From positions 3,599-67,598 of the forward strand of contig JAOAKE010000002.1 of assembly GCA_026413805.1 (NCBI GenBank): DNA of 64,000 nucleotides, read 5' to 3'. The notes beneath the pieces are model-generated. The model was not told where the DNA came from. It saw only the letters and a list, made by a program, of their open reading frames with translations, and searched no databases. Both the position numbers and the translations under genes were made by a program. Position 1 is the stretch's first letter; every line of letters begins with the position of its first letter. Below are positions 2,784 to 61,861 of this stretch, one piece after another. This stretch comes from Candidatus Micrarchaeota archaeon. GTDB taxonomy: Archaea; Micrarchaeota; Micrarchaeia; Anstonellales; Anstonellaceae.

Positions 2784-3086
2784 TTATGGGTGCAGTGCAT
2801 TTTTCATTTTGACAACAAAAATATTTGCTTCCATCTCATCTGTGATTTTTTCAATCCACGAGTCAAGATATCTGTAAGGTGTTGGAAAATCCCTTTTTAT
2901 TTTTTCTACTTCTTCCTTGAACGCCTTTAAGATTCTTTCCTTCCCTTCAACAGTTCTTGCAGAAAAAAACTTTTTTTGGAGGCCATTGACTCTTGCCTCA
3001 ATTTGCAAGTATGTTGGCGAAATCAGCACCGCATCACAGCGTTTCCGTGCCTCTTTTGCTTTCATATCACATCCCCCGCCTTTCAT
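2784..3086 (-). CDS. hypothetical small protein (100 aa), last gene of the minus-strand cluster
   Basis: ORF overlaps the 3' end of the 1389-aa gene by 20 nt. It is charged and lysine-rich. Confidence 0.4.
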   Translation of the reverse strand: MKGGGCDMKAKEARKRCDAVLISPTYLQIEARVNGLQKKFFSARTVEGKERILKAFKEEVEKIKRDFPTPYRYLDSWIEKITDEMEANIFVVKMKNALHP

Positions 3087-6000
3087 ACATTATCCTTTCT
3101 ATCTCTTTTATTAGATTATCTGGGTCAACCTCAAACTCCATCCTTCTTTCCTCTATTGCCTTTGTGATGTAGGCCAGGGCCTCACCTGGCTTTTCAAAAC
3201 TGCATGCCTTTTTGAAGAAGCCCTCTCCGAACACACCATCTACCTTGGCCTCCAAAAGAGCATAGTCTCCGCTGAAATACGCCTCTCTAAATTCCTTCTC
3301 AGCATTCGCAGCCTTAACCATCCATATAGCTGCCTCTGAACCTATTTGGTGTTGCGGCGGTTTTCCTTCTTCAACAAAAGCCTTGACGTCCATCATCACA
3401 TCCCCTATCCACTTTGTCGGAGCATCAGCTACTGCAAGAGGGACTCCCAAGACTCGGTCAACAGTCTGGCGGCTGTCCTTGTTATAGTAAGTCCGTTCAG
3501 TTGGCATTGCGCGGATTATTTCTGCCATGGTTTCAACAAAAGGATCATTGAAGCCTATCCTTGCTTCCCCTACTACGAACTTTTTGGTCAATGGCTTCGC
3601 CCACGGGACCTCTTCGGCATCCCTGGTCCCAAGACAATCACTGACGTAATAAGAAACCTCAAAGTGGGCTGCTCGCCTCAGTATGTTTATATTATATGTG
3701 AAAGAGTGGTCGCTGCCATTTATGTATAGATTCCCATTGTTTTCAGTTACGCAGAATGGGTGGTCCCCTCTAACTTTGCGCAGGTGGGGTATAAGCTCCT
3801 TGTATTCGGCACTCTGGACATTAGTGCAAACAACAGAGTTTCTCTCAACCTGTTTCTTCAAATCATATGCAAAGAGCATTTGCGGGAGCATAATATTCTG
3901 GATATTTGAAAGGAGATGGCCCATGTCTCCAGTCGTTTTTGCATTTTTGAGAACATTCTTTAAGATAATAGAGATAAGCGCAAGGTCGCCAGTTATTCTA
4001 CTTGGAGCAAGGAGGTCGGCAGCGAGCCCTGCGTATTCTTCTCTCAGGGGCGCCATGTTCTTTTCGCTTTTCGTTATTATTGAAGAAGCTTCAAGCAAGT
4101 CTCTTTCCATCTCATCAATTTTCTTCATCTTTTCTTCGGTCTCAAATTTGTTTAGGACTTTTCTCATGTAGCTGCAGATACTTTTTATATATCCATCCAT
4201 GGCCTCTTTGATGCTGGCAGGGTCGCTTTTCCCCATTGCCTCTTCCAATTTCTGCCTGGCAGAATTCATCTCCCAAGTCATCTCCTCCGAGAAGTAGTCT
4301 TTCTGCAGCTCTACAACAGGCCGAGTCTGGAACCTTTTAGAATACTGCGCTACTGACCGCATCAGCGAGAGCCTGGCAATGAGAGCTCCATCGTGTTTTT
4401 CTTTAGTTTGGCCAACCAATTCTTTTTCAATATTCTTTTCAATTAGCTTAATCGCCTCTTTTAGCTCGAGATAGGCCAATCCCTTTGCCTTGAGCCTTTC
4501 ATAAATTGTAAAGGGCACTTCTATGGGCAGCGCCTTATTCTTAAGAAATTCTGCTGCAAATGTTGTCCCATTATCCAGGTCAAATCTCGCTATCTCTTCT
4601 ATATATGGGTAATAGTAGTCAAGGGCCGTTCGCCTTTCTGCTATTTTTTTCGCAATTGCATTAGTTATCCATTCAACTGCGATTAGCTCTGGTCTTGATG
4701 TCAATATGAGCTCGTCCAACCTTTTTCCGCCATCCACATTGCACAGCCGCAGTATCAGCTTGTTTTTAGTTGGGAAAGTGGACCAAATTTCGTTTAGAGC
4801 ATCCTCCCCAATATTCGGGTTTTCCTTAGCAATGCTCAACTCCGTCTTGGCCACTTCCATCTTCAATCTCCACCCGACATCGCGCCCAGAGCGGATAGAG
4901 CGGATTTCCATCAAGTCAGATTGGGTAAATGGGTAGCCCCCCTCAGCAAGTTTCCTTATCAGCCTTAGCAGATGTGGCTCTTTTTTTGCCGCTTCAAAAA
5001 GCTTCTTTTTTAGCCCCACATCCACCCAATCTCTAACTTCATGGCCACTAAGAGTTAGCATCCCTTCCAATTCAAAATAAGTTTTCTTGTTTCCGCCCAT
5101 CCATTCATCAAGGAGGTTTAGGAATCGTTTGCGCTTGCCAGTCAACTCCAAAAGTTCATCAGGAGTCTTTGTGGAAATTTGGGGAAGGAACAGCACTAAT
5201 TCCTCAATCGTCATCTTGCCAAGGAGGTCTACGCTTCGTAGGCACCTTGACTTTATCTCTTCAAAAGGGGTGCTAGGGAAAGCTTTCAGATACAGCTGTA
5301 CAAGTTCTTTGGCGATCATTCCCGCTATGCTATTTGAGTGCTTAGAGAGGGCAGCAACAACCCCCTCGTTCCCAAGTATGTCTAGGATTTCAATTACCCG
5401 GCCATCTTCTAGGAAAGAGAAGCAGACTTCATCCACAAGGCTAACAAGGCTTAGGTTATTTTTGTTCTTTTCAAAAACGCCCTTTGCTAGTCTTGCTATC
5501 TCTTGGTTGCGCCCCAAGGCTATCCTTTCTACTGTTTCTGCAGCATACTCCCAGTCCTCTTTGATTCTGGGCCTGCTATCAGGTGCTTCAACGATTTCAG
5601 GGCGTCTTTCTTTTATTGGTTGTGCGCTTGAAATGATCGATTCGTAACCTCTTTTTATCATTTCGCTTTTTATATGGTCTAAAACTTGCGGGGAGGACTT
5701 CTCAAGGGCGGCATAGTAAAGCTCTCTTAGGAACTTCTCTCTGCTCTCTTTTGACATTTCCTCAGCACCCTTTATCAGTTTTCCTATTTCTTCTACTAAG
5801 GCCGGTTCCTCACCTCGCTTTGAAGACTCTTCTAGCCGATTCAAGAAGAAATCAAAAAACGATTTCATCATGACTTGTGCGCCTTTTTCATCCATCGCTT
5901 TGGCGTACTTTTCCTGCGCAGGAGAAAGCCTTGGCTTTCCAGTTACTTCGCCCGGCTTGATTTTTAGGCCGGTTACTCCCTTTGAAACAATCCGAGGCAG

Positions 6001-7236
6001 GCCCAAAAGGCCCCCACTTACAAGCAGGTTAGTGACATCATCAGGGCTCAATCCATATTTTTCAGCATTCAGTGATAGGTAAGTGCCGCTTGTCCCAACC
6101 TCAATCAGGAGGAACTTGCCAGCTAATGAACTGATGCCCATGCCTGCCTTTCCAACTGCAGCAAGAGCCGCGCCGCTAGATTCGATGGCAGACATGCCAG
6201 CGGTTTGCCCTATAAAACTAAGCATTCTGCCAGCAGCTTTGACATAAGCAAAAAATGGGGCTGCCATGGTAGCCGCCATAAGAGCCCCATGGACCTTGTC
6301 CTCCCAGCTGCTCTCTTTTTTGAAAGAGTCCATTACATCCTTTCCAAAATAAAGATAGCCTGCAAGCTGGGTTGGGGGGTAGGCTAATGCAGCCACTGCA
6401 AGCAGAGTCGGAGCCGCGGTCACAAGAGGCTCTGCAGCATGATATACCTTGTCGCCGATGCCTTTGGCTTCCCTTACTTTTTTTCGATATAGGAAGCTTG
6501 AAAGCTGTTTTTGCTCAAATTGCAAATAAGCATTGTTGAATCTTTCAAGTGATTTGCGGTAATTTGCAACCTCTTCGGCAAATCTTGCGTTGCTGCTCCA
6601 CCTAATTTGTGGAAGATTGGACGGGAGGAGGGAAGCATATTCTCTTTCAAGCTGCTTATTCGTGCTGCTGATGTACTCCATCTTGCCATTTATTTTATCT
6701 TGCATGCTGTAGAGGTTGAAGAGTTTTGAATACGCAAGGTAAGTGTTGGCATCTCTCAGGACGTTAAACCTGCTTTGGCAGTCAGGCATCTTGCCAAACT
6801 GGGCTCCCCACAATATGTAAGGAGTAAAGCGGCTGAGCAAATAGCTTGCAAGGGCATTGGCCGCCTTGGCAAATTCTTCAGGATCTTTGAGCGCTTTTGA
6901 TACTCTTTCCAATCTTTTTATGGTCAGCTCAACTTCGGAATATTGCTTTTCAAATGTTGACAACTGCAAGCTGTTCAATACTGCTTTGGCGTTGGCGTAG
7001 CCCATCCTCTCAAGCAAAGCAACCTGCTCTTCTGCGCTTTTCGCCTCATTTATAAGACCTATTAGCTCCCTTTCGCATTTTTTTGCAAGAAGCAGCTTGT
7101 CCCACGCCCCCTTGAATGTAGGGTCAAATAAATGCTCTTCTCTCACTTCTCTTTCTTCAGGGGGCTCTCTTCTGCCTACAACCTTGACCTCAACCTCCTT
7201 AGAGAATGACTGGAATAAAAGCACCATGGGGTGCAC
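3067..7236 (-). CDS. giant hypothetical protein (1389 aa), no recognisable domain
   Basis: Uninterrupted 4.17-kb ORF. There is an internal hydrophobic/Ala-Gly-rich stretch (PFFAYVKAAGRMLSFIGQTAGMSAIESSGAALAAVGKAGMGISSLAGKF). It sits immediately downstream of the beta-helix/vWA/MoxR genes with small intergenic gaps. Confidence 0.65.
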   Translation of the reverse strand: MHPMVLLFQSFSKEVEVKVVGRREPPEEREVREEHLFDPTFKGAWDKLLLAKKCERELIGLINEAKSAEEQVALLERMGYANAKAVLNSLQLSTFEKQYSEVELTIKRLERVSKALKDPEEFAKAANALASYLLSRFTPYILWGAQFGKMPDCQSRFNVLRDANTYLAYSKLFNLYSMQDKINGKMEYISSTNKQLEREYASLLPSNLPQIRWSSNARFAEEVANYRKSLERFNNAYLQFEQKQLSSFLYRKKVREAKGIGDKVYHAAEPLVTAAPTLLAVAALAYPPTQLAGYLYFGKDVMDSFKKESSWEDKVHGALMAATMAAPFFAYVKAAGRMLSFIGQTAGMSAIESSGAALAAVGKAGMGISSLAGKFLLIEVGTSGTYLSLNAEKYGLSPDDVTNLLVSGGLLGLPRIVSKGVTGLKIKPGEVTGKPRLSPAQEKYAKAMDEKGAQVMMKSFFDFFLNRLEESSKRGEEPALVEEIGKLIKGAEEMSKESREKFLRELYYAALEKSSPQVLDHIKSEMIKRGYESIISSAQPIKERRPEIVEAPDSRPRIKEDWEYAAETVERIALGRNQEIARLAKGVFEKNKNNLSLVSLVDEVCFSFLEDGRVIEILDILGNEGVVAALSKHSNSIAGMIAKELVQLYLKAFPSTPFEEIKSRCLRSVDLLGKMTIEELVLFLPQISTKTPDELLELTGKRKRFLNLLDEWMGGNKKTYFELEGMLTLSGHEVRDWVDVGLKKKLFEAAKKEPHLLRLIRKLAEGGYPFTQSDLMEIRSIRSGRDVGWRLKMEVAKTELSIAKENPNIGEDALNEIWSTFPTKNKLILRLCNVDGGKRLDELILTSRPELIAVEWITNAIAKKIAERRTALDYYYPYIEEIARFDLDNGTTFAAEFLKNKALPIEVPFTIYERLKAKGLAYLELKEAIKLIEKNIEKELVGQTKEKHDGALIARLSLMRSVAQYSKRFQTRPVVELQKDYFSEEMTWEMNSARQKLEEAMGKSDPASIKEAMDGYIKSICSYMRKVLNKFETEEKMKKIDEMERDLLEASSIITKSEKNMAPLREEYAGLAADLLAPSRITGDLALISIILKNVLKNAKTTGDMGHLLSNIQNIMLPQMLFAYDLKKQVERNSVVCTNVQSAEYKELIPHLRKVRGDHPFCVTENNGNLYINGSDHSFTYNINILRRAAHFEVSYYVSDCLGTRDAEEVPWAKPLTKKFVVGEARIGFNDPFVETMAEIIRAMPTERTYYNKDSRQTVDRVLGVPLAVADAPTKWIGDVMMDVKAFVEEGKPPQHQIGSEAAIWMVKAANAEKEFREAYFSGDYALLEAKVDGVFGEGFFKKACSFEKPGEALAYITKAIEERRMEFEVDPDNLIKEIERIMYERRGM

Positions 7237-8269: not shown

Positions 8270-10174
8270 CTACCGTTTCCCCTTTGCAAGCTGCTGCCTC
8301 ATCCCTTTTTCTGCCTCTTGAATGATTATCCTTGCGCCTTCTGAAATGTCCTTGACAGAGTGATAGACCGTCAGCTTTCCAGAAGTTTCAATCCCCACCT
8401 CCCATGCAGGGGCGCTTGTTATGACCGCTACGCTGTTGGCTTCCTTTAGCTCTTCAAGCAGCTCAAGCATCTTGCGCTTGTTGTGAATTTTCATGTCGCT
8501 TACCAAATACACATGCAGGTCCTTCTCAGAGAAGTTTTCTGAAAGCCCGTTGCCTATTGCAGCCTCTTGCGCATGCTTTTTTGCAAACACCACATTCTCC
8601 AAAAGGCTTTGCAAATTGCCGCTGTTAAATGGGGCCTCTAATCGGGCCTGCATCCCAGAATTCTTTTTGAGCATCAGCCGCCCCATTGCAGTGTCTATCA
8701 AAGTGCCACCGCCCTGATACGCCAATATTGCGGCGCAGGCAAGGCGAAGGTCACAGGTGTATGGCAGGCAGTATGTTTTAGAGCCGAAGTTGATTACTCC
8801 TACTTTGCCGCCAAGCTGGATGGTCGTTTTGGCAATTCCAACCGCAATTGCAGCAAGCACAGAAGTTGACTTCTCAGGGTCGCCCATAGTCAGGCTGGCA
8901 TCCTGTATTATCAGGGAATTTTCAGGGGCATAATCAGTCTTGCGGAAAACCCTTGGGGCCTCGCCAACCATCATGGTGATGCCGGGCAAAACCTTTCCGC
9001 CAGAAGTCTCTGGCAAGGCCCTTTCCATCGGGTTGCCAAGGAAGAACCTATCAGTTCCGCTCATTCTTTTTTGCTCCGCGAGAATCTCTTTGGCGGGCTT
9101 GCCAGCCACTGCAGGATAGTTTTCAATAAGCTTCAAGTAATATTCAACAGTCTGCCTCTTTACCCAAAGCCCACCGCCAGAAGTCCCTGCGCCAAGGAAA
9201 GGGTTCATGAGCTCGCCTTTGCCTTCTCCCCCTTCAATTTCAATCCCTGCCCTTTTTGTTATCCTTTCAAGTTCCTCTTTTGAGGCAAAAGGCGCAATTT
9301 TTGAGAGGGCAATGTCAATGTCTGCGCGCCTGGCCTTTCGTATCATCTCGGTTGCGTCGCTGTCAATAGGTTCCATCTTTCCTTCATAGGCCTCTCCCAA
9401 GGAAAATCTGCCCTTGCCGATTCCAAATGACCTTGAAAAGTAACGCTCTCCCCAGAAGTTTCGCATCACCTCTAAGAACACCACTGCTGCATTTTCAAGT
9501 GCCCTAGGCTCAAACGGGGCATTCTTAAAGTCAATGCAAAATAGCCTTTCCAAGAAAGGCGCATGCTCTTTTTCAGAGGCTCCAGTTTCCCCCGCTTGCT
9601 TTTCAAGATAAGCAAGAATGAGGCTTGCAAACTCATCCTTGCTTGCTATTGCCTCTGCTTTGCGGAGGCATAAGACAAACCTGCTTCTTTGAGGGCAAAT
9701 GGCATTGTTTGCATCGTTTATCAAGCGCGAGAGCTTGCGGAAGGCAGCCTCTGCAAAGGCGATGCCATGCGAGTCCCCAGCATTCTCGTGTATATAGTGC
9801 TGCAAAAGCATGATATTTTGGTAGTTCCTTGGAAAGTTCATATACGATCCAATCACCCCTGTCATCATGCCAGCAAGCACTAAGTCAAGGTCAATGCCGC
9901 TGTTTTGGGAGAGGCGGAATGCAAATGCAGGGTCAATATATGGCCTGCCCGAGGCAAAGTCAAAGTGCATCCCACTGAAAGGAAAAGGGGGCTTTTCAAG
10001 CGCAGGATCTTTTATGACTGGAAGGTGGAATGTTGCCCTGCATTCCTCCCAAATCTTCAATGCCTTTTCCTTTGGGACAAGGGTTGCTTGCTCCAGCAGG
10101 GGTTCACTTTCAGTCTTGCCAGCCTTTCTATTTGTTTTGGAATATTGGGCAAGGAGGCTCCTGTTGCGCAGCAT
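8270..10174 (-). CDS. von Willebrand factor A (vWA) domain protein with long N-terminal region
   Basis: The C-terminal ~200 aa carry a MIDAS-like DxSxT motif (IQDASLTMGD). The hydrophobic core is typical of vWA (VLAAIAVGIA...VGVINFGSKTY...YQGGGT). It lies 11 nt downstream of the MoxR ATPase gene. Confidence 0.65.
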   Translation of the reverse strand: MLRNRSLLAQYSKTNRKAGKTESEPLLEQATLVPKEKALKIWEECRATFHLPVIKDPALEKPPFPFSGMHFDFASGRPYIDPAFAFRLSQNSGIDLDLVLAGMMTGVIGSYMNFPRNYQNIMLLQHYIHENAGDSHGIAFAEAAFRKLSRLINDANNAICPQRSRFVLCLRKAEAIASKDEFASLILAYLEKQAGETGASEKEHAPFLERLFCIDFKNAPFEPRALENAAVVFLEVMRNFWGERYFSRSFGIGKGRFSLGEAYEGKMEPIDSDATEMIRKARRADIDIALSKIAPFASKEELERITKRAGIEIEGGEGKGELMNPFLGAGTSGGGLWVKRQTVEYYLKLIENYPAVAGKPAKEILAEQKRMSGTDRFFLGNPMERALPETSGGKVLPGITMMVGEAPRVFRKTDYAPENSLIIQDASLTMGDPEKSTSVLAAIAVGIAKTTIQLGGKVGVINFGSKTYCLPYTCDLRLACAAILAYQGGGTLIDTAMGRLMLKKNSGMQARLEAPFNSGNLQSLLENVVFAKKHAQEAAIGNGLSENFSEKDLHVYLVSDMKIHNKRKMLELLEELKEANSVAVITSAPAWEVGIETSGKLTVYHSVKDISEGARIIIQEAEKGMRQQLAKGKR

Positions 10175-18764: not shown

Positions 18765-20107
<1,343 letters not shown>

Positions 20108-21390: not shown

Positions 21391-22008
21391 ATGTCATCCC
21401 ATTCAGTTAAGCTATTTGGCAAATACGATTTAAGCGAAGTTAAGGTCTCAGACCCGTCCTTTTCCAACTACATAAGCCTATCGCCCGTCATTCTCCCCCA
21501 CTCACATGGCAGGCACGCAAAGAAGCAATTTGGCAAGAAATCAGTCAATCTGGTAGAGAGGCTTGCCAACAAGCTAATGCGCGGCGGGACTGGTGAAAAA
21601 ACATCTGGCAAAGTCATCAGGACAGACGGCAGAATGCAAGGAAAGAAGACAAAGGCCCTTGCAATAGTTGAAGAGGCATTTTCCATAATCGAAGGGCGGA
21701 CAAAGAAAAATCCAGTCCAGCTTCTTGTAGATGCTGCCCAGAATGCTGCCCCGCGCGAAGACTTCACTCGCGTTTCAATGGGCGGGGTTTCTTACCAGGT
21801 GGCAGTTGACATCTCTGCCTCGCGCAGGCTGGACATGGCGCTGCGCAACCTTGCACTTGCAGCTGTCATGGGCTCATTTGACAAGAAAAAGACGCTTGCA
21901 GAGGCACTGGCAGACGAGATAGAGTTCGCTGCAAAGGGAGACCCCAACTCCTCCTATGCCATCAAAAAGCGCGACGAAACCGAAAGGATGGCCCGCTCTG
22001 CAAGATAA
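21391..22008 (+). CDS. rps7: ribosomal protein S7
   Basis: S7/S5e family and its position. Confidence 0.88.
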   Translation: MSSHSVKLFGKYDLSEVKVSDPSFSNYISLSPVILPHSHGRHAKKQFGKKSVNLVERLANKLMRGGTGEKTSGKVIRTDGRMQGKKTKALAIVEEAFSIIEGRTKKNPVQLLVDAAQNAAPREDFTRVSMGGVSYQVAVDISASRRLDMALRNLALAAVMGSFDKKKTLAEALADEIEFAAKGDPNSSYAIKKRDETERMARSAR

Positions 22009-22030
22009 AGGCTTATTGCCCATTGTTGCC

Positions 22031-22060
22031 ACAGGGCAACAGCTTGAAAACTTTTATTAG
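22031..22060 (+). terminator. hairpin GTTGCC-ACAG-GGCAAC followed by a T-rich tract downstream of rps7
   Basis: Perfect 6-bp inverted repeat directly followed by CTTGAAAACTTTTATT. Confidence 0.35.
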
Positions 22061-22134
22061 CTTTCTTGGGATTAGGTGGGTGTATTTAGGTCTTGGGCAA
22101 CAGATATGGCCGCACCTCACCGATATTGCAAACT

Positions 22135-22860
22135 CTAATTTGGTTCGCAACACCTACTGTCACATCCACAACTAATGTTACAGACTTGATAGCTACAGCA
22201 AACATGGGTGTCAGGGAGGTAAATTGTCTCATTGTTACAGCACGCATAAGGAGGATAATATGTTTTCTCCCCACAGTTCCCGCGGGGCAGGCACCATTCC
22301 CCAAAGCACGGCATTTCTTGAATGCATTCTCCCACCAGCTTCACCGTGCCTGTCTGGTTTTCTTCAGGTCCAAAATAAATAGGATAAGAAGAGGCGCGAT
22401 AACTAAAAGCCAAGTCAAGCTGGTATCTTGATCCTTCTAAAAACACCTCTCCTGACTTGCAGGGATGTTTCTGAAGAGAGCTTAGATTTATGGAAATTAT
22501 CTTTACTGTGTTTGGATAAAAGTACAGAGAGCGAGCGGGAGCACCCTTATCCCATGAGAATCGAGTAGCCTCATGGACTCTAAACATTGAAAAATTTTGC
22601 CCATTGACATAAACTTTGGTTAGCGTAATTGCCTGCGGCTCCTCGTTTTTAATCTCCAGCAAAAGGTAATTTGGGCTTACGAAATTTGATTTTACTGCAA
22701 TTGGCCTTGCAGAAGACCAGTATTTGTCCGACCTCTCCTTTTCAACAGAGCTTGCAAAGCCAGGCCAAATCATCGCAAGCACTATTGCAATTATAACAAT
22801 GAGGAGGGCAACAGCATAAATCATCATGCTTTCAGATGCTGCCTGGCCGCGCAAAGCCAT
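22135..22860 (-). CDS. type IV pilin-like (class III signal peptide) secreted Cys-rich protein
   Basis: The N-terminus MALRGQAASESMMIYAVALLIVIIAIVLAMIW has the [KR]G-Q/A prepilin-peptidase-like site with Glu at +5 and a hydrophobic helix. The C-terminal 60 aa contain about 14 Cys (YACCNNE...VCCSYQVCNISCGCDSRCCEPN). It is encoded antisense between rps7 and EF-2. Confidence 0.55.
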   Translation of the reverse strand: MALRGQAASESMMIYAVALLIVIIAIVLAMIWPGFASSVEKERSDKYWSSARPIAVKSNFVSPNYLLLEIKNEEPQAITLTKVYVNGQNFSMFRVHEATRFSWDKGAPARSLYFYPNTVKIISINLSSLQKHPCKSGEVFLEGSRYQLDLAFSYRASSYPIYFGPEENQTGTVKLVGECIQEMPCFGEWCLPRGNCGEKTYYPPYACCNNETIYLPDTHVCCSYQVCNISCGCDSRCCEPN

Positions 22861-22979
22861 ATGCTCGCCTATTTGCCCATCTGCTTTCCGCCAATTATAA
22901 AAACGTTATGCATTATAAGGCTTCGCTGCTTGATGCCAGCTTTAGCTCAAGTAAGTTAGCAATTGCCAGGGGTTTTCAT

Positions 22980-25172
22980 ATGGTGCGAAAGGAATACGTT
23001 GTTGAAGAAGTAGTCAAAATGATGAACAAGGTTGAGAACATACGCAACATCGCCATAGTCGCGCATGTTGACCATGGAAAAACCACCATGACAGATTCTC
23101 TTGTCGCCAGGGCTGGGCTTATCTCAAAAGAGCTTGCAGGCGAGCAGCGCGTCATGGACTTTGATGAGCAAGAACAGGCGCGGGGGATTACCATCAAGGC
23201 AGCCAACATATCATTGGGCTTCCAATACAACAACGAAGACTACCTGATCAACCTGATTGACACTCCAGGCCATGTTGATTTTGGCGGCCATGTCACCCGC
23301 GCCATGAGGGCAGTAGACGGCGTGGTGCTGGTGGTAGATTCAGTAGAAGGAATAATGCCACAGACAGAGACCGTGCTTCGGCAGGCCCTAAAAGAAAAGG
23401 CAAAGCCCACTGTTTTTATTAATAAGATAGACAGGCTGATCAACGAGCTTCAGCTGGATGCAAATGCCATGCAAGCCAGGCTAATCAAGATAATTACGGG
23501 CTTGAACAAGATAATTGAGCAATATGCGCCCCCTGACAAGCGCGAGGAGTGGCAAATCGGCGTGGCAAAGGGCAATGTGGCTTTTGGCTCAGCATACCAC
23601 AAATGGGCAGTTTCAATAAAGAGCATGACCCGATTTAACATCAAGTTTCCTGAAATTTACCAGCATTGCAAGGCAGGTGACCACAAGACTTTGGTGGAAA
23701 AGTCTCCCCTTGATGATGTCTTGCTCCAGATGGTGATTGACCATCTGCCCAATCCAAAGGTGGCACAGCAATACCGAATCCCTGTGATTTGGAAGGGCGA
23801 GCTTGACTCCCCAGAGGGCAAATCCATGCTTGCCTGCGACCCAAGCGGCAAAACAATCGGAGTCTGCTTTGGGGTGGTAAATGACGAGCACGCCGGCGAG
23901 GTGGCAGTTGTTCGGCTCTTTTCAGGCACAGTGAAAAAAGGAGACGTGCTTTATCTTGCCTCCCGGCTTGCAAGCGAAAAGGTCCAGCAGGTGGCAATTT
24001 ACATGGGGCCTGACAGAGTAATGGTGGACAGCGTTCTTGCAGGAAACATCGTTGGGCTGGTGGGCTTGCGCGATGTTTATGTGGGCGAAACAGTCTCAGA
24101 CGGCCCAATAACCCCATTTGAGCAGATAAAGCACTACTCTGAGCCAGTTGTCACCAAGAGCATAGAGGCAAAGGATTCCAAGGACCTCTCCAAGCTCATC
24201 TTGGTGCTTCGCCAAATTGGAAAAGAAGACCCGACCTTGAAGGTGGAAATCAACCATGAAACAGGCGAGCACCTAATCTCTGGGATGGGCGAGCTCCACC
24301 TTGAAATAATAGAATACAAGATAACCAAGGAGCGTGGAATACCAATAGTAACCTCCCCGCCAATCGTGGTCTACCGTGAAACTATTCTTGGCAAGGCAGG
24401 GCCAGTTGAGGGCAAGTCCCCAAACAAGCACACCAAGCTCAAGTTCGTAGTTGAGCCCCTTGAAAAGTCTGTTTATGAAGCGATGGTTGAAGGCAGGATT
24501 CCAGAAGGAAGGCCAAAAGGAAAGTCGCTTGTTGAAACTCTGGTGGAGTGCGGCTTGCCACGCGAGGAGGCAAAGAGCGTGCTGGACATCCACAACCGCA
24601 ACATTTTCATAAACGACACGAGGGGAATCCAATACCTCAACGAGATTATGGAGCTGCTTATACAAGGTTTTGAGGAGGCCATGGACCTTGGCCCGCTTGC
24701 AAAGGAAAAGGTTGTAGGGGTAAAGGTCCGAATAGTAGATGCCCTGATTCACGAAGACCCAGTCCACCGAGGGCCTGCCCAGATAATACCTGCAACAAAA
24801 AGGCCAATATACGCAGCGATGATAATGGCGGGCGTAACCCTGCACGAGCCAAAGCAAAAGGTCACCATCCTCTGCCCGCAGGAATACATGGGCAATGTAA
24901 TTACGCTGATTCAAGGAAGGCGAGGCCAGCTTCTTGACATGCAGCAAGAAGGTGAGACCTCAACAATAATAGTAAAGCTGCCAGTTGCCGAGATGTTCGG
25001 CTTTGGGAACGACTTGCGCTCAGCCACGCAAGGAAGAGGGATTCCTTACCAAGAATATGCTGGCTATGAGCCTCTTCCAAAAGAGCTTCTTGCAAAGGTG
25101 GTTCGGCAAATCCGAGAGAGAAAAGGCGACAAGCCCGAGCCTCCAACAGCCCAAGATTTCTTGGACTTGTAA
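22980..25172 (+). CDS. fusA: elongation factor 2 (aEF-2)
   Basis: G-domain AHVDHGKTT, DTPGHVDF and NKIDR motifs. The listed ORF starts 144 nt earlier, but the conserved N-terminus begins at MVRKEYVVEEVVK. Confidence 0.92.
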   Translation: MVRKEYVVEEVVKMMNKVENIRNIAIVAHVDHGKTTMTDSLVARAGLISKELAGEQRVMDFDEQEQARGITIKAANISLGFQYNNEDYLINLIDTPGHVDFGGHVTRAMRAVDGVVLVVDSVEGIMPQTETVLRQALKEKAKPTVFINKIDRLINELQLDANAMQARLIKIITGLNKIIEQYAPPDKREEWQIGVAKGNVAFGSAYHKWAVSIKSMTRFNIKFPEIYQHCKAGDHKTLVEKSPLDDVLLQMVIDHLPNPKVAQQYRIPVIWKGELDSPEGKSMLACDPSGKTIGVCFGVVNDEHAGEVAVVRLFSGTVKKGDVLYLASRLASEKVQQVAIYMGPDRVMVDSVLAGNIVGLVGLRDVYVGETVSDGPITPFEQIKHYSEPVVTKSIEAKDSKDLSKLILVLRQIGKEDPTLKVEINHETGEHLISGMGELHLEIIEYKITKERGIPIVTSPPIVVYRETILGKAGPVEGKSPNKHTKLKFVVEPLEKSVYEAMVEGRIPEGRPKGKSLVETLVECGLPREEAKSVLDIHNRNIFINDTRGIQYLNEIMELLIQGFEEAMDLGPLAKEKVVGVKVRIVDALIHEDPVHRGPAQIIPATKRPIYAAMIMAGVTLHEPKQKVTILCPQEYMGNVITLIQGRRGQLLDMQQEGETSTIIVKLPVAEMFGFGNDLRSATQGRGIPYQEYAGYEPLPKELLAKVVRQIRERKGDKPEPPTAQDFLDL

Positions 25173-25227: not shown

Positions 25228-25737
25228 CTATCTGCCTATCTTTGCCTTTTTTACAAAGTAAAGGGAGTCAGCAGTCAATGGGGCGGATGCAAGTTTTTTG
25301 TTTTCTTTTTTTATCTTTTCGTCAGCCCCCGAAATGGCATAGATTCTTTTTATCATCTCAATTTTAATCGCAGAGAGCAAATTTTTGGCCTCGAGCCTTA
25401 TCCCTCCTCTGTCAATTTCCTGCATTATGCCACTTTCCCCATTTGAAATTTTTTCTGCTGCCTCGTCACTCACATGTATTATTACATTTGGCTTTTCTAC
25501 AGGGTGCATTTCAAATGAGTAGAGCCTTCCGTTTTTGACTTCCACCCCAATGACCTTCCCCCCTACATATACATTCATTTTTTCATTTCCAATAAGCATC
25601 TTGGCAGAAGAAGGTATCTTGTCTTCAATGTGAGAAAAGTAATAATCAAGCATCTCTTCCCTGCTTTGCTTTATCTCAAAAGAAAAAGCCAAGGTAAAAA
25701 GTGCCAGCAGCATAATGCCAACGGCAGCCGCCCTCAT
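25228..25737 (-). CDS. hypothetical secreted/membrane-anchored protein (169 aa)
   Basis: The N-terminal hydrophobic signal MRAAAVGIMLLALFTLAFSF is present. It is divergent from the GH5 gene. Confidence 0.45.
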   Translation of the reverse strand: MRAAAVGIMLLALFTLAFSFEIKQSREEMLDYYFSHIEDKIPSSAKMLIGNEKMNVYVGGKVIGVEVKNGRLYSFEMHPVEKPNVIIHVSDEAAEKISNGESGIMQEIDRGGIRLEAKNLLSAIKIEMIKRIYAISGADEKIKKENKKLASAPLTADSLYFVKKAKIGR

Positions 25738-25846
25738 TAAAAGACCGACTAATAATAAGCATACAAACTTATTTAAACTATAACTGGAAGAAATTTAATT
25801 TGTGCTGTTGGCAGCACAAATAGGAGAAATATACGGGGTTGGTGCT

Positions 25847-28765
25847 ATGGATAGGCGAATCATTTATGTCTTTTTGTTTGCTTTGTTTTCTGGGGCAATT
25901 TTTGCGTCAGACCCTTCTTTTGTAAGTGTTCAATCAGGCAGGTTTATGCTCAATAACCAACCGTTCTATTTCTCAGGCACCAACGCCTATTATCTAGTGA
26001 CTTATGAGAAACTTGACCCCGCATACGTCACCAACACACTTAATCTCTTTGCGAATAACAACGTGACTGTTGTAAGGATGTGGGGCTTCTTTGACGGCTA
26101 TCCAAAATCAAAGTGCAGTAACTATAGTGGCGCGTCCGACCCCTCGCTTCAGCCACTTCCCGGAGTTTATAATGAATCCGCCCTCCGCTTGATGGACTCA
26201 GTCGTAAAAAAGGCAAAAGACCGCAACATCAAACTTATAATCTCATTTGTGAATTTCTGGGGAGACTTGGGAGGAATCTGCCAATATAACCAATGGGCAA
26301 ATTATTCCGGCAGCTACCAACCCACCCATGATGAAGCAGTTTTCTTCTTTACCAACCCGACTACCAAGCAGTGGTATAAGAACTATGTTTCCATGATTTT
26401 AAACAGGGTGAATACCCAAACAGGAGTGGCATACAAAGATGAGCCTACTATAATGGCATGGGAGCTGATAAATGAAGGAAGGATTCCCCAAGAAAGTGAC
26501 ATCACAATCATTCGTAATTGGTATCAAGAGATGGCGCAGCACATAAAATCAATTGACAACAAGCACCTTGTTACTACTGGTGAAGAAGGATTTGAAAATG
26601 CCATGGACTACTCCGGCTCGCCATACAGCCGCAATCTTTCCAATACCTATGTCCTTCGTGCAGGGCAGGGCACAAGTTACATTGCCAACATACAAATCCC
26701 AGAAATTGACTTTGGGCAAATACACGTCTATCCCGATGCATTCGGCTTTTCCACGGCCAACAATTATTCTGCATGGTTCCCTGACTCGGTCACCTACATC
26801 AATGACCATGCAAGAATTACCCAGCAATACGGAAAACCCATGCTTATTGGAGAATACGGCTCAAGCTATGTTGAAGGGTGGGTCGAAGATTCATTATTCA
26901 AAAGGAATTTCTACTCTTATATCTGGGCCAACAACGAACAAAATCCAAATGTGGCAGGAGACCTGCACTGGCAATTTGTTATCGGTCCCAAGTGCACTGA
27001 ATACGGAGGCAACATATGTGCTACCCGCGACCCCATTCTTACCTCGATGTTCAACCAGCATGGCTACAACATGAAGATGAAGTCAGGAGGAACAACTCCA
27101 TCAGACACCACCCCGCCAACAGTTTCAATTACCCATTCACCTGCCAACCCAACCTCCACTCAAAATATCACCCTCACAGCAACTGCTTCTGATGCATCAG
27201 GAATAAAGCAAATCCAGATTTACCTAGATGGGGCGCTTGCCAAGACATGCACCTCAGCTACCTCCTGCACCCATATTGCAGGCCCATTTGCAGCAAACAC
27301 TGTGCACACCTACTATGCAACAGCCACTGATAACTCTGCCAATGCCAACACTGGCAGAGACCCAGCCTCTGGAACAAAGAACTTCACAATATCCCAAGCA
27401 GCCCAGCAAGACACCACCCCGCCAACAGTTTCAATTACCTCCCCAGCAAATGGCAGCACAGTAAATGGCACCATTACAATAACTGCAACTGCCTCTGACA
27501 ATGTAGCAGTTGCAGGGGTGCAGTTCAAGGTGGATGGGGCCAACCTTGGCTCAGAGGACACCACTGCGCCTTACTCAGTTGTGTGGAATTCCTCTTCAGT
27601 TTCACCAGGCCAGCACACAATATCAGCAGTGGCAAGGGACACCAGCAACAACACTGCCACTGCCACAATAGTGGTTAATGTAGCAGCAGAGGTCCCACCG
27701 GCAGACACCACCCCGCCAACAGTTTCAGTTTCCCACTCGCCTGCCAACCCAACAAGCCTAGACAGGGTTACTGTTACTGCAGAAGCCTATGATGCAAGCG
27801 GCATAGCTTACATCACCATAATGGTCGATAACAAGACCGCGGCAAACTGCACCACAAGCCCATGCAAGACAACCGCTGCTCGCTATGCGATAGGCACTCA
27901 CACCTACTCTGCAATTGCAGTTGATAAATCCAGCAATGCCAACAAAGGCTATTCTGCAGTCAAATCATTTGTCGTTGTTAAGAAGGGCACCAAGCCCACC
28001 ACTACTATACAAAGCACAGCTGCACTTGACGCAGCCAGCTCAATTACCTATACACGCGAGGTTTCAGGAGACGAGGAGACCACTACCGTGGCTCTCAGTG
28101 TAACCAACCCAACGGACACTGAGATGAAAAATGTCCTGCTAAAGGAAAAGATTCCCGCTGCCTTTGCCACAGACCCAACCAAGATATCCTTCAGCCAGAA
28201 GCCTTCCTACTTCGAGTCAGGCTCGATAGTCGCAGTTTGGGAGTTTGCAAAAATCAAGCCAAAGGAAAAAATCAGCATCACTTACAGCGTGGCGCGCGAG
28301 GCTTCGGTTAAGGCAAGCGACTTCAAGCTCTCAGCAGCATTTAAGGCGCCACCTGAGCCTGGCAAGGAAGCGGCCCTTTCTGTGCCCGCATCAGTTTCAG
28401 CCCCTGAAAAAGTCGTAATCGGAAAGGAAGTCTCAGTGCAGCTGACAGATGCAGCTGGCAAGCCCCTCAAGAACGTGCTGGTGTCAATAAAAGGACCTGA
28501 GGGAGAAACAGTCGATTACATGACTGACCAGCAAGGCACCCTGCGGTTCACTCCAGAGGTAAGTGGCAAATATTATTACCTCTCCAAGGAAGCGAAGCTT
28601 TCAGCCCCAGCAGCTACCGAGGTCCTTGTAGAGCCAGAAGAGAAAAAGCCAGCCGCCATTCTCTCCAAGGAGACATCTGACAACATAGGGCTGCTGATAG
28701 CTCTCTTCCTTGTGGTTATTGCGGGCGCGGTACTCTACCTCTCCACTCGCAAGAAAGGGAATTGA
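25847..28765 (+). CDS. cell-surface glycoside hydrolase family 5 (endo-beta-mannanase-like) with three Ig-like (Big-type) repeats and a C-terminal TM anchor
   Basis: Signal peptide MDRRIIYVFLFALFSGAIFA. GH5 hallmarks VVRMWGFFDG and WELINEGR (the NEP-like acid/base region) are present. Three ~100-aa repeats each begin TTPPTVS(I/V)(T/S)HSPANPTS. The C-terminal anchor is IGLLIALFLVVIAGAVLYLSTRKKGN. Confidence 0.7.
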   Translation: MDRRIIYVFLFALFSGAIFASDPSFVSVQSGRFMLNNQPFYFSGTNAYYLVTYEKLDPAYVTNTLNLFANNNVTVVRMWGFFDGYPKSKCSNYSGASDPSLQPLPGVYNESALRLMDSVVKKAKDRNIKLIISFVNFWGDLGGICQYNQWANYSGSYQPTHDEAVFFFTNPTTKQWYKNYVSMILNRVNTQTGVAYKDEPTIMAWELINEGRIPQESDITIIRNWYQEMAQHIKSIDNKHLVTTGEEGFENAMDYSGSPYSRNLSNTYVLRAGQGTSYIANIQIPEIDFGQIHVYPDAFGFSTANNYSAWFPDSVTYINDHARITQQYGKPMLIGEYGSSYVEGWVEDSLFKRNFYSYIWANNEQNPNVAGDLHWQFVIGPKCTEYGGNICATRDPILTSMFNQHGYNMKMKSGGTTPSDTTPPTVSITHSPANPTSTQNITLTATASDASGIKQIQIYLDGALAKTCTSATSCTHIAGPFAANTVHTYYATATDNSANANTGRDPASGTKNFTISQAAQQDTTPPTVSITSPANGSTVNGTITITATASDNVAVAGVQFKVDGANLGSEDTTAPYSVVWNSSSVSPGQHTISAVARDTSNNTATATIVVNVAAEVPPADTTPPTVSVSHSPANPTSLDRVTVTAEAYDASGIAYITIMVDNKTAANCTTSPCKTTAARYAIGTHTYSAIAVDKSSNANKGYSAVKSFVVVKKGTKPTTTIQSTAALDAASSITYTREVSGDEETTTVALSVTNPTDTEMKNVLLKEKIPAAFATDPTKISFSQKPSYFESGSIVAVWEFAKIKPKEKISITYSVAREASVKASDFKLSAAFKAPPEPGKEAALSVPASVSAPEKVVIGKEVSVQLTDAAGKPLKNVLVSIKGPEGETVDYMTDQQGTLRFTPEVSGKYYYLSKEAKLSAPAATEVLVEPEEKKPAAILSKETSDNIGLLIALFLVVIAGAVLYLSTRKKGN

Positions 28766-41547: not shown

Positions 41548-41907
41548 ATGCTAAATAGAAAAATAGCCATTTTGTCAGTTGCACTGCTGATGCTGGTTGC
41601 ATTGGCAAGTGCCCAGCGCAGCGGGCTTTCTGCGCTGGAGAACGCCATCAGGACATTATGCAGCAGCCTAAATGCCCTGCTTCCAGTAGTGGCAATGCTG
41701 ATGGTCTTGGTGGCAGGAGTAATATATGCTGCTGGGCAGATAATGGGTGCTGAAACCCGTGCAAGGGCAAATGTCTGGGCAACTGCTGCCCTGACAGGCG
41801 CACTAATAGCCCTTCTTATCTACTCTATCGCCCCGCAGATACTCTTCCAGCTTTATAACACAGGCAGTGCCACCAGCACAGACTGGATAAACCAATACTG
41901 CAGATAA
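41548..41907 (+). CDS. small secreted double-TM protein (119 aa), VirB2/TrbC-pilin-like architecture
   Basis: Signal peptide MLNRKIAILSVALLMLVALASA. Two hydrophobic helices (LLPVVAMLMVLVAGVIYAAG and AALTGALIALLIYSIAPQILF) are separated by a short polar loop. It is inserted between rpl15 and secY. Confidence 0.45.
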   Translation: MLNRKIAILSVALLMLVALASAQRSGLSALENAIRTLCSSLNALLPVVAMLMVLVAGVIYAAGQIMGAETRARANVWATAALTGALIALLIYSIAPQILFQLYNTGSATSTDWINQYCR

Positions 41908-42046: not shown

Positions 42047-43555
42047 ATGGGCTCGCTTGATTTCATCCAGCCTGTTATGCGCTTTTTGCCAGAGGTTGCA
42101 CCGCCTTCTAGACCACCTACCCTTTCAGAAAAGCTGATGTGGACTTCTCTGGCGCTTGGAATATTTTTTGTCATGTACAATGTAGTGGCTGTCGGGGTGG
42201 AGCAGCACGCTGCAGGAATGGACTTTTTGCAGGTGGTGACTGCCAGCCGCATAGGCTCTCTGATTACTGTTGGAATCGGTCCAATTGTGCTTGCAAGCAT
42301 TTTCTTGCAGCTTTTTGCTGGAGCGAAGATAATTAACGTGGACATGTCCAATCCAGAAGAAAAGCGCAAGTTCCAAGCTACGCAGAAGCTTCTTGCCATA
42401 CTGCTTTGCTTTTTAGAGGCCACAATATTTGTGGTATTTGCGAGGGTGGCACTGATGCCCCTTTTCCCCGGAGAGGGCTATACCACAAACCTAGACGGTT
42501 CGCAAAGCCTTCATGCCCCACTTACCATGGCTATAGTGATATTCCAAATAGCCCTTGGCTCGCTCATTCTTCTTTATCTTGACGAAGTGGTTTCAAAGCA
42601 CGGAATAGGCAGCGGCATTTCCCTTTTCATCGCTGCCGGTGTCTCCATGGCAATAGTTGGAGGCACAATTGCGCTTTTTACAGGCCCTGGCGGGGTAATC
42701 GAAGCCCTTTCCTCTGGAAGCTCAGAGGCTCTTCCAAATGCCATTCTTGCCCTTCTCCCACTTTTCTTTACAATTGCAGTCTTCTTGGTAGTTTCGTATG
42801 CAGAAGGAATAAAAGTGGAAATACCTCTTGCATTTGACCGAGCGCGCGGGTTTGGAAGCCGGTTTCCAATAAAGCTTTTGTATGTCTCAAACATCCCAGT
42901 CATACTTGCCTCTGCCCTTCTTATGAACCTTCATCTTTTTGCAGTTGGCCTGCAAGACAAGCACCTCTGCATTACAGGGGAGTTTGACCCTACAAGCCAG
43001 GAGCTTAACAAGTGCAAAGGAGGAATAGACTTAGTGCAGCTGATAGCATTTGTTGATTCCAGCCATCAGATAAGGGATGGAGCGCTTTATTTGATATCGC
43101 CCATCTATCGCCCGCTGCAAGGAAACTACGGCGCTTACTTTAACCACATAATTTCAGGCCAAACCCCGGTATATGGCTTGCCAGAGTGGCTTCACGTAAT
43201 CGTGTATATTCTCTTCATGATGGGGCTTTGCATTCTTTTTGGCCAGTTCTGGATTGAGACCACGGGAATGAACGCGCAGGAAGTGGCAAAGCAGCTGGAC
43301 AAGTCTGGGCTTCAAATTCCAGGATTTCGCCGCGACCCGAGAGTAGTAGAAAAAAAGCTCAACGACTATATACCTTACATTACAGTAATCGGCAGCGCAT
43401 TTGTCGGCCTGCTTGCAGCACTTGCAGACATGTCAGGGGCGCTTGGCAGCGGGACAGGAATACTCCTGACAGTGGGCATCCTTTATAGGATGTACCAAGA
43501 CCTCGAGAACCAGCGGCTCTTTGAATCATATTCCCTCCTGAGCAAATTTGCATGA
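42047..43555 (+). CDS. secY: preprotein translocase subunit SecY
   Basis: 10-TM SecY family, in the conserved position after rpl15. Confidence 0.92.
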   Translation: MGSLDFIQPVMRFLPEVAPPSRPPTLSEKLMWTSLALGIFFVMYNVVAVGVEQHAAGMDFLQVVTASRIGSLITVGIGPIVLASIFLQLFAGAKIINVDMSNPEEKRKFQATQKLLAILLCFLEATIFVVFARVALMPLFPGEGYTTNLDGSQSLHAPLTMAIVIFQIALGSLILLYLDEVVSKHGIGSGISLFIAAGVSMAIVGGTIALFTGPGGVIEALSSGSSEALPNAILALLPLFFTIAVFLVVSYAEGIKVEIPLAFDRARGFGSRFPIKLLYVSNIPVILASALLMNLHLFAVGLQDKHLCITGEFDPTSQELNKCKGGIDLVQLIAFVDSSHQIRDGALYLISPIYRPLQGNYGAYFNHIISGQTPVYGLPEWLHVIVYILFMMGLCILFGQFWIETTGMNAQEVAKQLDKSGLQIPGFRRDPRVVEKKLNDYIPYITVIGSAFVGLLAALADMSGALGSGTGILLTVGILYRMYQDLENQRLFESYSLLSKFA

Positions 43556-60513: not shown

Positions 60514-61782
60514 ATGGCAGAAAAGGAGCACATTAACCTGATATTCATAGGCCACGTGGACCATGGCAAGTCCACGACAGTAGGGCGGATACTTTACGAG
60601 ACAGGTGCACTCACAGAGCAGCAGCTTAGAAAGCTCAAGGAAGAGGCAGAAAAGGTTGGCAAGGCCACCTTTGAATTTGCCTTTACCATGGACACCTTGA
60701 AAGAAGAGAGGGAGCGAGGAGTGACAATTGACCTCTCCCACAAGGAATTCCAAACCCAAAAATACTACTTCACCATAATAGACGCCCCTGGCCACAGGGA
60801 CTTTGTAAAAAACATGATTACCGGAGCATCGCAGGCAGATGCCGCTGTCTTGGTCTGCTCTGCAAAAGAAGGGGTGCAGGCACAGACAAAGGAACACGCC
60901 TTCCTTGCAAAAGTGCTGGGGGTAAACCAGCTTATAGTTGCAATAAACAAGATGGATGCAGTCAATTATGACCATGTCAAGTTTGACGAAACCAAGATGG
61001 CACTTCAAAATCTGCTCAAGAACATCGGATACAAAGTAGACACAATACCATTCATCCCAATTTCAGGCTATGCCGGGGCAAACATAAAGACCAAGTCGCC
61101 TGAAACTCCTTGGTACGCAGGTCCAACTCTTATTGAGGCATTTGACAAGCTCACTCCTCCTGCCAAGCCAATTGACAAGCCCCTTAGGCTTCCAATCCAA
61201 GATGTATTTACAATTACAGGCCATGGCACTGTGCCAGTAGGCAGGGTAGAAACAGGCGTAATGAAAGTCAATGACAGCGTGGTATTCATGCCTTCTGGGG
61301 CAAAGGGAGAGGTAAAAAGCATTGAGATGCACCACCAACCCCTGCAGCAAGCAGTGCCTGGCGACAACATCGGCTTCAACGTGAAGAACGTTGACAAGAA
61401 AGACATCAAGCGAGGCGAGGTAGTGGGCCCAGCCAACAACCCGCCAAAGGTAGCTTCAGAATTCACTGCCCAGATTGTTGTGCTTGAGCACCCAACTGCA
61501 ATTGGAAAGGGCTATACTCCTGTCTTCCACATTCACACTGCCCAGGTAGCATGCACAATAACTGAGATAATGGAAAAGAAAGACCCCAAGACCGGGCAAG
61601 TGCTCCAAAAGAACCCTGACTTTATAAAATCAGGAGATGTGGCAGTGGTAAAGGTCAAGCCCCTCAAGCCAGTGGTCGTTGAAAAGTTCCAAGAATTCCC
61701 TCCACTTGGCAGGTTTGCCATTAGGGACATGGGGCAGACAGTCGCGGCAGGAGTGGTGCTTGACGTTGTGCCGAAAGCATAA
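60514..61782 (+). CDS. tuf: elongation factor 1-alpha (aEF-1α)
   Basis: [17 protein letters not shown] and NKMD motifs. Confidence 0.95.
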
Positions 61783-61861
61783 ATTCTCTTTTGTTTTTAT
61801 GAAAATTTATGGCGAGCGAAGTATCCGGTCCGCAAGAATCGGAACAAAACAGGTGCATTGA

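Follow-up and report, generated by a model that had tools for sequence, protein, structure and literature searches.

The subject of this analysis is a minus-strand gene that occupies most of the 971-bp gap between the genes for ribosomal protein S7 and elongation factor 2 (EF-2) on contig JAOAKE010000002.1 of a Candidatus Micrarchaeota archaeon (GenBank assembly GCA_026413805.1, family Anstonellaceae). The window, as the term is used here, is the whole stretch of 64,000 nucleotides that was analysed (positions 3,599 to 67,598 of this contig), and coordinates are those of the window unless another locus is named. The original prediction, made from the letters alone, described the gene as an 'antisense' insertion into the conserved S12-S7-EF-2 string, encoding a type IV pilin-like protein of 241 amino acids with a cysteine-rich C-terminus. 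The frame is indeed as described, running unbroken from ATG to TAG with 241 codons plus the stop, and its product has the same sequence as MCX8194608.1 (N3G22_00655), which comes from a Candidatus Micrarchaeota metagenome-assembled genome (MAG) and is annotated as a 'hypothetical protein'. The term 'antisense' is apt in the sense of opposite strand and nothing more: the gene overlaps no other, converging with that of S7 across a spacer of 126 bp (22009-22134) and diverging from that of EF-2 across one of 119 bp. The EF-2 open reading frame (ORF) as listed begins at 22836 and overlaps the start of the pilin-like gene via an upstream in-frame extension only; because homologues are 730 amino acids long, we take MVRKEY at 22980 to be the true start (Table 1).

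Whether such a frame is a gene at all can be judged from its length and composition. In 2000 dinucleotide-preserving shuffles of the gap no stop-free stretch of at least 241 codons arose (maximum 208, mean 95), and a codon model trained on confident window genes ranks the annotated frame first of the six. Its N-terminal half scores 0.21, like ordinary genes, and the score of the tail is low because cysteine codons are rare. A chance or decaying frame in an intergenic spacer, from which no protein is made, could be argued from a GC content and codon score lower than those of the neighbouring genes and from the want of a Pfam match. Such a frame would nonetheless have to coincide with the length and codon statistics just given, with a protein family that has invariant residues, with a confident structure model and with orthologues at the same position in at least eight other contigs, and for practical purposes this explanation is refuted. 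Failure of conservation at this position in related genomes and lack of a coding signal had been named in advance as the observations that would count against the gene, and the opposite was found on both points.

Table 1. Features of the S7/EF-2 slot and its borders, in window coordinates
Feature	Position	Strand	Basis or remark
Ribosomal protein S7, convergent neighbour, one border of the slot	21391..22008	+	Pfam Ribosomal_S7, E 1e-39
Complete pilin-like coding sequence	22135..22860	-	Identity with MCX8194608.1, shuffles, frame score, 156 homologues
C-terminal cysteine-rich module, residues 180-241 (62 residues)	22138..22323	-	Sequence
Beta-sandwich head, residues 54-179	22324..22701	-	AlphaFold2 strands, Foldseek, profile matches, invariant columns
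Mature N-terminal alpha-helix, residues 6-49	22714..22845	-	Hydropathy and AlphaFold2 helix 4-49
Class III signal leader MALRG, 5 amino acids, Arg at -2, Gly at -1	22846..22860	-	Predicted cleavage Gly5/Gln6
TATA-like TTTTTATAAT	22894-22903		Ends 33 nt before the pilin ATG
TATA-like CTTATAAT	22912-22919		7-locus spacer alignment
TCAAGCAGCG, part of the conserved block 22894-22933	22924-22933		7-locus spacer alignment
EF-2, 730 amino acids, divergent neighbour, other border	22980..25172	+	Pfam GTP_EFTU, EFG_III, EFG_IV, EFG_C

Predicted signal peptide and fold, and family, of the encoded protein

The N-terminus of the protein consists of MALRG followed by QAASESMMIYAVALLIVIIAIVLAMIWPGF, so that cleavage after Gly5, the predicted site, puts glutamine at +1 and glutamate at +5 (MALRG/QAASE); the class III signal peptide with Glu+5 of the original prediction is thereby borne out, with Gln+1 added to it. 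Substrates of EppA carry leaders of 5-13 amino acids that end in glycine and are followed by Gln at +1 and Glu at +5 (PMC3875500), and the present signal, to which a FlaFind-style pattern was also applied, is of this DUF361/EppA type: a short, positively charged leader with a glycine end, Gln+1 and Glu+5. The leader would accordingly be removed at Gly5/Gln6. Q6 and E10 are invariant across an alignment of 18 subfamily sequences, and 137 of the 154 retrieved relatives have an x[GA]Q motif. The hydrophobic segment that follows extends from about residue 10 to residue 32 (mean hydropathy 2.1-3.2 in 19-residue segments starting at residues 7-19), and AlphaFold2 predicts a single long helix from residue 4 to residue 49 with a predicted local distance difference test score (pLDDT) of 94-98. 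To judge from its sequence, this helix would form a filament core or a membrane anchor. In the literature that we searched, nothing was found on cleavage of this leader or on incorporation of the protein into a filament.

The AlphaFold2 run, for which an alignment of 30 sequences was used, has a mean pLDDT of 83 and a predicted template modelling score of 0.72, and pLDDT exceeds 90 for residues 11-180 except in two loops. The beta-sandwich head has two cysteines that do not vary in the subfamily alignment, C134 within 'HPC' and C179 within 'GEC', which probably form a disulfide with each other, and the head contains NxS/T sequons at N89, N125 and N168. When the model was compared with the PDB by Foldseek, the first-ranking entry was 8fk7, the type IV pilus of Pyrobaculum calidifontis (E 1e-4), and the second 8q30, the Aap pilus of Sulfolobus acidocaldarius (E 5.6e-4). 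When the PDB was searched by sequence with a hidden Markov model (HMM) of 86 family members, the same two entries were the only significant matches (E 1.3e-5 and 3.9e-4), in alignments that span both helix and sandwich; the wider family profile was needed for this significance, the profile of the close subfamily alone giving E 2.2. A pilin fold composed of a long N-terminal helix and an immunoglobulin (Ig)-like beta-sandwich is thus supported by the model, and the type IV pilin likeness originally proposed finds its counterpart in archaeal pilus subunits by structure and by profile alike.

The family to which the protein belongs became visible with the depth of the search. In a word-indexed homology search the single protein retrieved itself only, and the subfamily alignment six proteins; when 1.84 billion representatives were searched exhaustively with HMMER, 156 relatives came up, of which 19 had E <= 1e-10, and the family profile matches at least 779 proteins at E <= 1e-5 in a collection of 5.8 billion. 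The homologues for which the original prediction had proposed a search are therefore there, and the closest 20 or so form a subfamily. Among the matches, the organism names given by the source are all Micrarchaeota (Micrarchaeia, Bilamarchaeaceae, Burarchaeum), one row reading 'uncultured archaeon', and some family proteins are annotated as 'class III signal peptide-containing protein' or 'UPF0333 family'. Once aligned, the closest relatives have in common Q6, E10, W48, P53, C134, Y154, G177 and C179 as invariant positions, a QRSDxYWxxARPFSV motif directly after the helix, an 'NPC' cysteine and a terminal 'GxC'. The Pfam profile PF04021 (Class_IIIsignal), of 27 positions only, hits 16 of the 30 close homologues and 70 of the 86 that are more distant (best E 3.4e-7); the protein of the window, in which QAASESMMIY departs from the QxSxEY consensus of this profile, gives no match even at E <= 1. 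We conclude that it is an unannotated member of the archaeal DUF361/UPF0333 type IV pilin-like proteins.

A link to a pilus machinery is provided by one of the relatives (P0250), which sits on a 421-kb Micrarchaeia contig in a locus (L010) where a T2SSE ATPase gene (E 2.8e-33) and two T2SSF platform genes are followed by three tandem family members of 152, 157 and 156 amino acids. Two platform genes are a hallmark of the archaeal type IV filament 'system 1', which occurs in methanogens and DPANN (bioRxiv 10.64898/2026.04.22.720090). With the first of these operon pilins (9520-9978 of that locus) the protein of the window aligns over residues 4-179 (BLASTP E 5e-18, 27% identity), and the alignment stops at the operon pilin's C-terminal cysteine; canonical Micrarchaeia pilins end exactly at GxC. 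Because the alignment stops at that cysteine, residues 1-179 can be read as a complete canonical Micrarchaeia pilin and residues 180-241 as an add-on to it, an architecture which, on sequence criteria, is that of a 'modular pilin'.

The S7/EF-2 slot and its neighbourhood

Gene contexts were gathered mostly protein by protein, since a locus search with five sequences gave one genome-collection locus and one metagenome locus. In all nine of the readable contexts of close relatives the pilin-like gene adjoins or lies by S7 and/or EF-2; more distant family members are found elsewhere in their genomes. The gene stands between EF-2 and S7 in L005, an Anstonellaceae MAG (GCA_038824715.1), where it encodes 897 amino acids with Galaxin-like repeats; between EF-2 and one further gene, beyond which lies S7, in L004 (a 1247-aa pilin with a beta-helix) and in L008, another Micrarchaeota MAG (GCA_026414185.1); and, again beside EF-2, it is separated from S7 by a second cysteine-rich pilin-like gene in L003 and by an ORF with cysteine repeats in L009. 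In L001 and on the contig of P0152 the gene is divergent from EF-2, and on the contig of P0011 one gene lies between it and S7. In the isolate SKW29 (L002) it is convergent with S7, and a large secreted protein takes the place of EF-2. Occupancy of the slot is therefore a fixed feature of a Micrarchaeota (Anstonellaceae-like) clade: the original prediction had the position right, and the insertion is not peculiar to the genome of the window. In the literature searched, both this fixed address and the module variability at it appear to be undescribed.

The constancy of the address contrasts with the divergence of what is encoded there. Across the slot loci EF-2 is 88-90% identical (L001, L003, L004, L005), S7 82-88% (L002, L003, L004, L005) and S12 87-92%, and the pilin just 29-35%. 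The part beyond the pilin domain varies in kind: about half of the relatives have none, and others carry di-Cys Galaxin-like repeats, conotoxin-like knots, a NosD-like beta-helix or He_PIG/PKD arrays of Ig domains. The dip in GC content within the gene had suggested a recent horizontal insertion, which we rejected as a general explanation because all related loci have an occupied slot and the GC content of the pilin equals that of the locus there.

Several of these loci offer observations of their own. In L003 (about 3760-5049, plus strand) the second of the two tandem pilin-like genes, MEKRGQAASEYLVLG, is a member of another pilin subgroup, and its long tail has cysteine-rich repeats of the CxxxxxxCC type, so that a cysteine-rich module can sit on different pilin scaffolds. 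The divergent neighbour in L002 (1-1700, minus strand) is a large, sequon-rich secreted protein with apparent beta-helix repeats that runs off the contig end. Inteins (Intein_splicing and LAGLIDADG_3) are present in EF-2 of L009 (4655-7891) and in RNA polymerase subunit A'' of the P0011 contig, and the fragmentation of the EF-2, S7 and pilin genes in L009 suggests frameshift errors of assembly.

When the spacers of seven loci are aligned, one conserved block only is seen, which in the window spans 22894-22933 (Table 1). With the boxes read from the alignment and judged by the archaeal TATA consensus, the block would hold back-to-back promoters, one for EF-2 and one for the pilin-like gene. The premise of a conserved S12-S7-EF-2 string needs amendment in this lineage, for the string is already broken here: EF-2 appears to have a promoter region of its own, and EF-1alpha and S10 (60514-62167, plus strand) do not follow it directly and lie about 35 kb downstream of it, which means that the order S12-S7-EF-2-EF-1alpha-S10 is interrupted in more than one place.

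The surroundings of the slot contain further genes of some interest. Between EF-2 and L3 a minus-strand gene (25228-25737) encodes a 169-aa protein with an N-terminal signal or transmembrane segment and no Pfam match; it recurs in the corresponding position in L001 (53% identity) and L004 (44%), with ORFs of similar size on the P0152 contig and in L008, and constitutes a second clade-specific insert in the ribosomal superoperon. It is followed (25802-28765, plus strand) by a secreted protein of 987 amino acids with a glycoside-hydrolase-like TIM-barrel, three Big_7 Ig domains and a C-terminal transmembrane anchor, which is found between EF-2 and L3 in the genome of the window only and is absent from L001 and L004. 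With this secreted protein sitting there too, the neighbourhood seems to collect genes for surface proteins. Where the ribosomal-protein block ends, the gene just ahead of SecY (42047-43555) encodes a small membrane protein of 119 amino acids (41548-41907, plus strand). This odd neighbour of SecY has a weak match to the Pfam TrbC/VirB2 pilin family (E 2.9e-5, 24.6 bits, under the cut-off of 27.9 bits). Between the two RNA polymerase subunit A genes lies an ORF of 110 amino acids with a transmembrane-like segment (18765-19097, plus strand), and the same place is occupied in L005 (6815-7012, 65 amino acids) and in L008 (12952-13245, 97 amino acids). Three large ORFs, 355-2703 (+), 3067-7236 (-) and 8270-10174 (-), of 782, 1389 and 634 amino acids, have no Pfam match at E <= 0.001, and a 490-aa ORF next to them matches an AAA lid domain only.

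The cysteine-rich tail

Of the 14 cysteines of the protein 12 lie in the last 57 residues, at positions 185, 190, 196, 207, 208, 221, 222, 227, 231, 233, 237 and 238, and the other two are C134 and C179 of the core domain. The cysteine-rich C-terminus of the original prediction is therefore real, and its figure of about 14 in 60 amino acids slightly high, being the count for the whole protein. Cysteine makes up 21% of these 57 residues; at the background of 0.74% in the confident proteins of the window, the probability of at least 12 cysteines in such a stretch is 1.5e-14. The spacing, C-x4-C-x5-C-x10-CC-x12-CC-x4-C-x3-C-x-C-x3-CC, comprises three CC doublets and one CxC, with an even cysteine count. 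The tail further contains five tyrosines, one tryptophan, one phenylalanine and six prolines, and sequons at N210 and N228. It has one CC-x5-Y-x6-CC unit, CCNNETIYLPDTHVCC, which is similar to the repeats of type CC-x4/5-Y-x6-CC in the orthologues P0007, P0014 and L009, a resemblance that has to be set against the occurrence of the pattern in 6% of shuffled tails. To the Galaxin-like di-Cys repeats (PF24748), which orthologue P0007 matches at E 3.2e-25, the tail has no significant match.

We regard this tail as more plausibly a disulfide-rich knob outside the cell than a metal site, because CxxC motifs are lacking and because of the kinds of tails that occur in orthologues. A metal-binding module, be it metallothionein-like or a zinc or Fe-S site, would be in keeping with the high proportion of cysteine and with the CC and CxC motifs, and the tail is too poorly modelled for structure to decide. 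There is, however, no CxxC anywhere in the tail, so that the cysteine ligand pattern of zinc ribbons, Fe-S proteins and metallothioneins was not found there; the many aromatic and proline residues, the two N-glycosylation sequons and the even number of cysteines are equally out of character; the tail is predicted to lie outside the cell; and the tails of orthologues match disulfide-rich families, namely the Galaxin-like repeats mentioned above and I2 conotoxin (8.2e-7). We accordingly hold metal binding in place of a disulfide knot to be very unlikely.

Function and comparison with known systems

That the gene encodes a pilin-like surface protein with a class III signal is, taken as a claim by itself, highly probable. 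Beyond this, we think it probable, with a good measure of doubt, that the protein is a processed type IV pilin-like subunit that is built into a system-1-type pilus in small amounts or at its tip and exposes a variable adhesive module. The preprotein would insert into the membrane and an A24 prepilin peptidase would remove MALRG, after which a type IV pilus machinery, whose genes would lie at another place in the genome, would extract the mature protein and build the filament. Of this filament the core would be formed by the helix and the surface by the head, the latter stabilised by the C134-C179 disulfide and by N-glycans, and the tail might fold into a small outward-facing knob with up to six disulfides that binds a host cell or a substrate. 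The gene would probably be transcribed from the conserved TATA-like box, back to back with the EF-2 promoter.

A minor or tip pilin that presents an adhesin is favoured over a bulk subunit because the modules of orthologues reach about 1150 residues. Were the protein instead the major structural pilin of a Micrarchaeota pilus, every subunit would bear a tail, and the tails would lend the filament stability in a hot setting. In favour of this, the slot orthologues that have no tail, about half of the total, are 170-200 amino acids long, a typical pilin size, and the gene lies in divergent orientation next to the promoter region of EF-2, a highly expressed gene, with a TATA-like box conserved there. 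A filament in which each subunit carried a module of 500-1150 residues, as in P0004, P0007, P0011 and P0020, would nonetheless be difficult to pack, the pilins actually encoded in a type IV pilus operon are the shorter, 150-aa family members and do not belong to the subfamily of this protein, and the sequence evolves at a very high rate for a core structural subunit. A major pilin is hence an unlikely role.

A further explanation would leave out the filament altogether: a surface protein with a class III signal, processed or anchored by its helix, might display head and knob without ever entering a long filament, in the manner of the binding proteins of the Sulfolobus bindosome or of S-layer-facing proteins of the FlaF/FlaG type. 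Class III signals do serve non-pilus proteins as well, the soluble domain of FlaG is among the Foldseek matches (5tuh_B, TM-score 0.48 relative to the target), and the gene stands alone in machinery-free surroundings. This explanation has to contend with the full-length homology to operon-encoded pilins and with the conservation of Gln+1 and Glu+5. This residue pair is not known to occur in FlaF and FlaG proteins. Stand-alone pilin genes, moreover, are the rule in archaea (PMC4858521), and an existence outside the filament seems improbable to us as well.

Returning to the filament-borne, adhesin-presenting pilin, a number of observations weigh against it and are best considered together. The protein reaches no Pfam or NCBIfam threshold, that of PF04021 included, so that its assignment to the family depends on the motif and on transitive homology, and it has lost the first conserved cysteine pair, a local pair present in most subfamily members. 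The gene has a GC content of 0.41-0.45 and a codon score under those of its neighbours. The TM-scores of the Foldseek matches to pilins are just 0.23-0.38, with root-mean-square deviations of about 16 Å, and generic Ig-like folds come close behind the pilins in the same list; for 8q30 and 8fk7 the low scores are due to the different orientation of helix and head in the model. A Pfam search of 25 of the larger ORFs of the 64-kb window found no prepilin peptidase, ATPase or platform gene, and the family HMM together with a motif scan in six frames found no second class III or pilin-like protein in it. The modelling that had been proposed for the cysteine-rich domain was carried out with AlphaFold2 and left the tail poorly defined, with an unreliable pLDDT of 44-68 for residues 180-241. 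The tail alone matches nothing significantly in Pfam (IGFL at E 0.57 only), and since phmmer likewise found nothing significant between it and all retrieved homologues, homology to the tails of orthologues is not claimed. Finally, about half of the orthologues are tail-less and look like ordinary pilins, which indicates that the conserved role of the slot does not depend on the tail.

The wider significance of the gene lies in its distribution and not in its mode of action, since it leaves the known workings of type IV pilins unchanged and implies no new mechanism. It belongs to a large, Micrarchaeota-specific pilin family, the subfamily of which keeps a fixed address by EF-2 and S7, evolves several-fold faster than its neighbours and bears interchangeable surface modules; these three properties together make it a concrete and easily located candidate for host or surface recognition in this clade, and make the slot a convenient marker locus for the study of diversifying selection at the population level. 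Micrarchaeota are DPANN archaea, many of them host-dependent, and pili-like structures that connect ARMAN cells with Thermoplasmatales have been observed (PMC5864196); two comparative-genomics papers on the phylum make no mention of pilins in their main text. More tentatively, and with more doubt than conviction, the S7/EF-2 slot could be regarded as a dedicated, clade-wide adhesin cassette, in which a pilin scaffold, transcribed back to back with the EF-2 promoter, swaps or rapidly diversifies its C-terminal modules, among them cysteine-rich knots, di-Cys repeats, beta-helices and Ig arrays. Such a cassette, if real, would set host or substrate specificity and would tie the expression of an attachment organelle to that of the translation apparatus.

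Known systems resemble the protein in different respects. In the bacterial 'modular pilins', for example PilB and PilC of Streptococcus sanguinis, a pilin domain is extended at its C-terminus by a functional module, and the protein described here similarly continues for 62 residues past the canonical pilin end; the likeness is an analogy of architecture and not homology, the system here is archaeal, the modules themselves differ, and both filament incorporation and an adhesive function are in our case only proposed. A further archaeal pilin, likewise from a hot habitat, also has an additional C-terminal domain and structural cysteines; it is of another type IV filament subsystem and another lineage, and a cysteine density and variability like those of the Micrarchaeota slot are not described for it. 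The Aap pilin of S. acidocaldarius (8q30) and the flagellar-like type IV pilus subunit of P. calidifontis (8fk7) share the same helix and Ig-like sandwich at about 16% identity, but are pilins of 136-144 residues with no C-terminal module and, unlike the protein of the window, lack the Gln+1/Glu+5 pair (for Sulfolobus, PMC3875500). In its N-terminal region the protein resembles the Epd pilins of Methanococcus maripaludis (EpdA-E, MMP1685; PF04021), which are processed by EppA, belong to 'system 1' and have the same short leader ending in glycine, Gln+1, Glu+5 and hydrophobic helix (PMC3875500). Pilin genes often stand alone and away from the machinery (PMC4858521), and the Micrarchaeia machinery locus has two platform genes, as does 'system 1'. 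Unlike the Epd family, the protein remains under the PF04021 reporting level, and whereas the major Epd pilin is without a globular head, it carries a beta-sandwich of 125 residues and, beyond it, the cysteine-rich tail.

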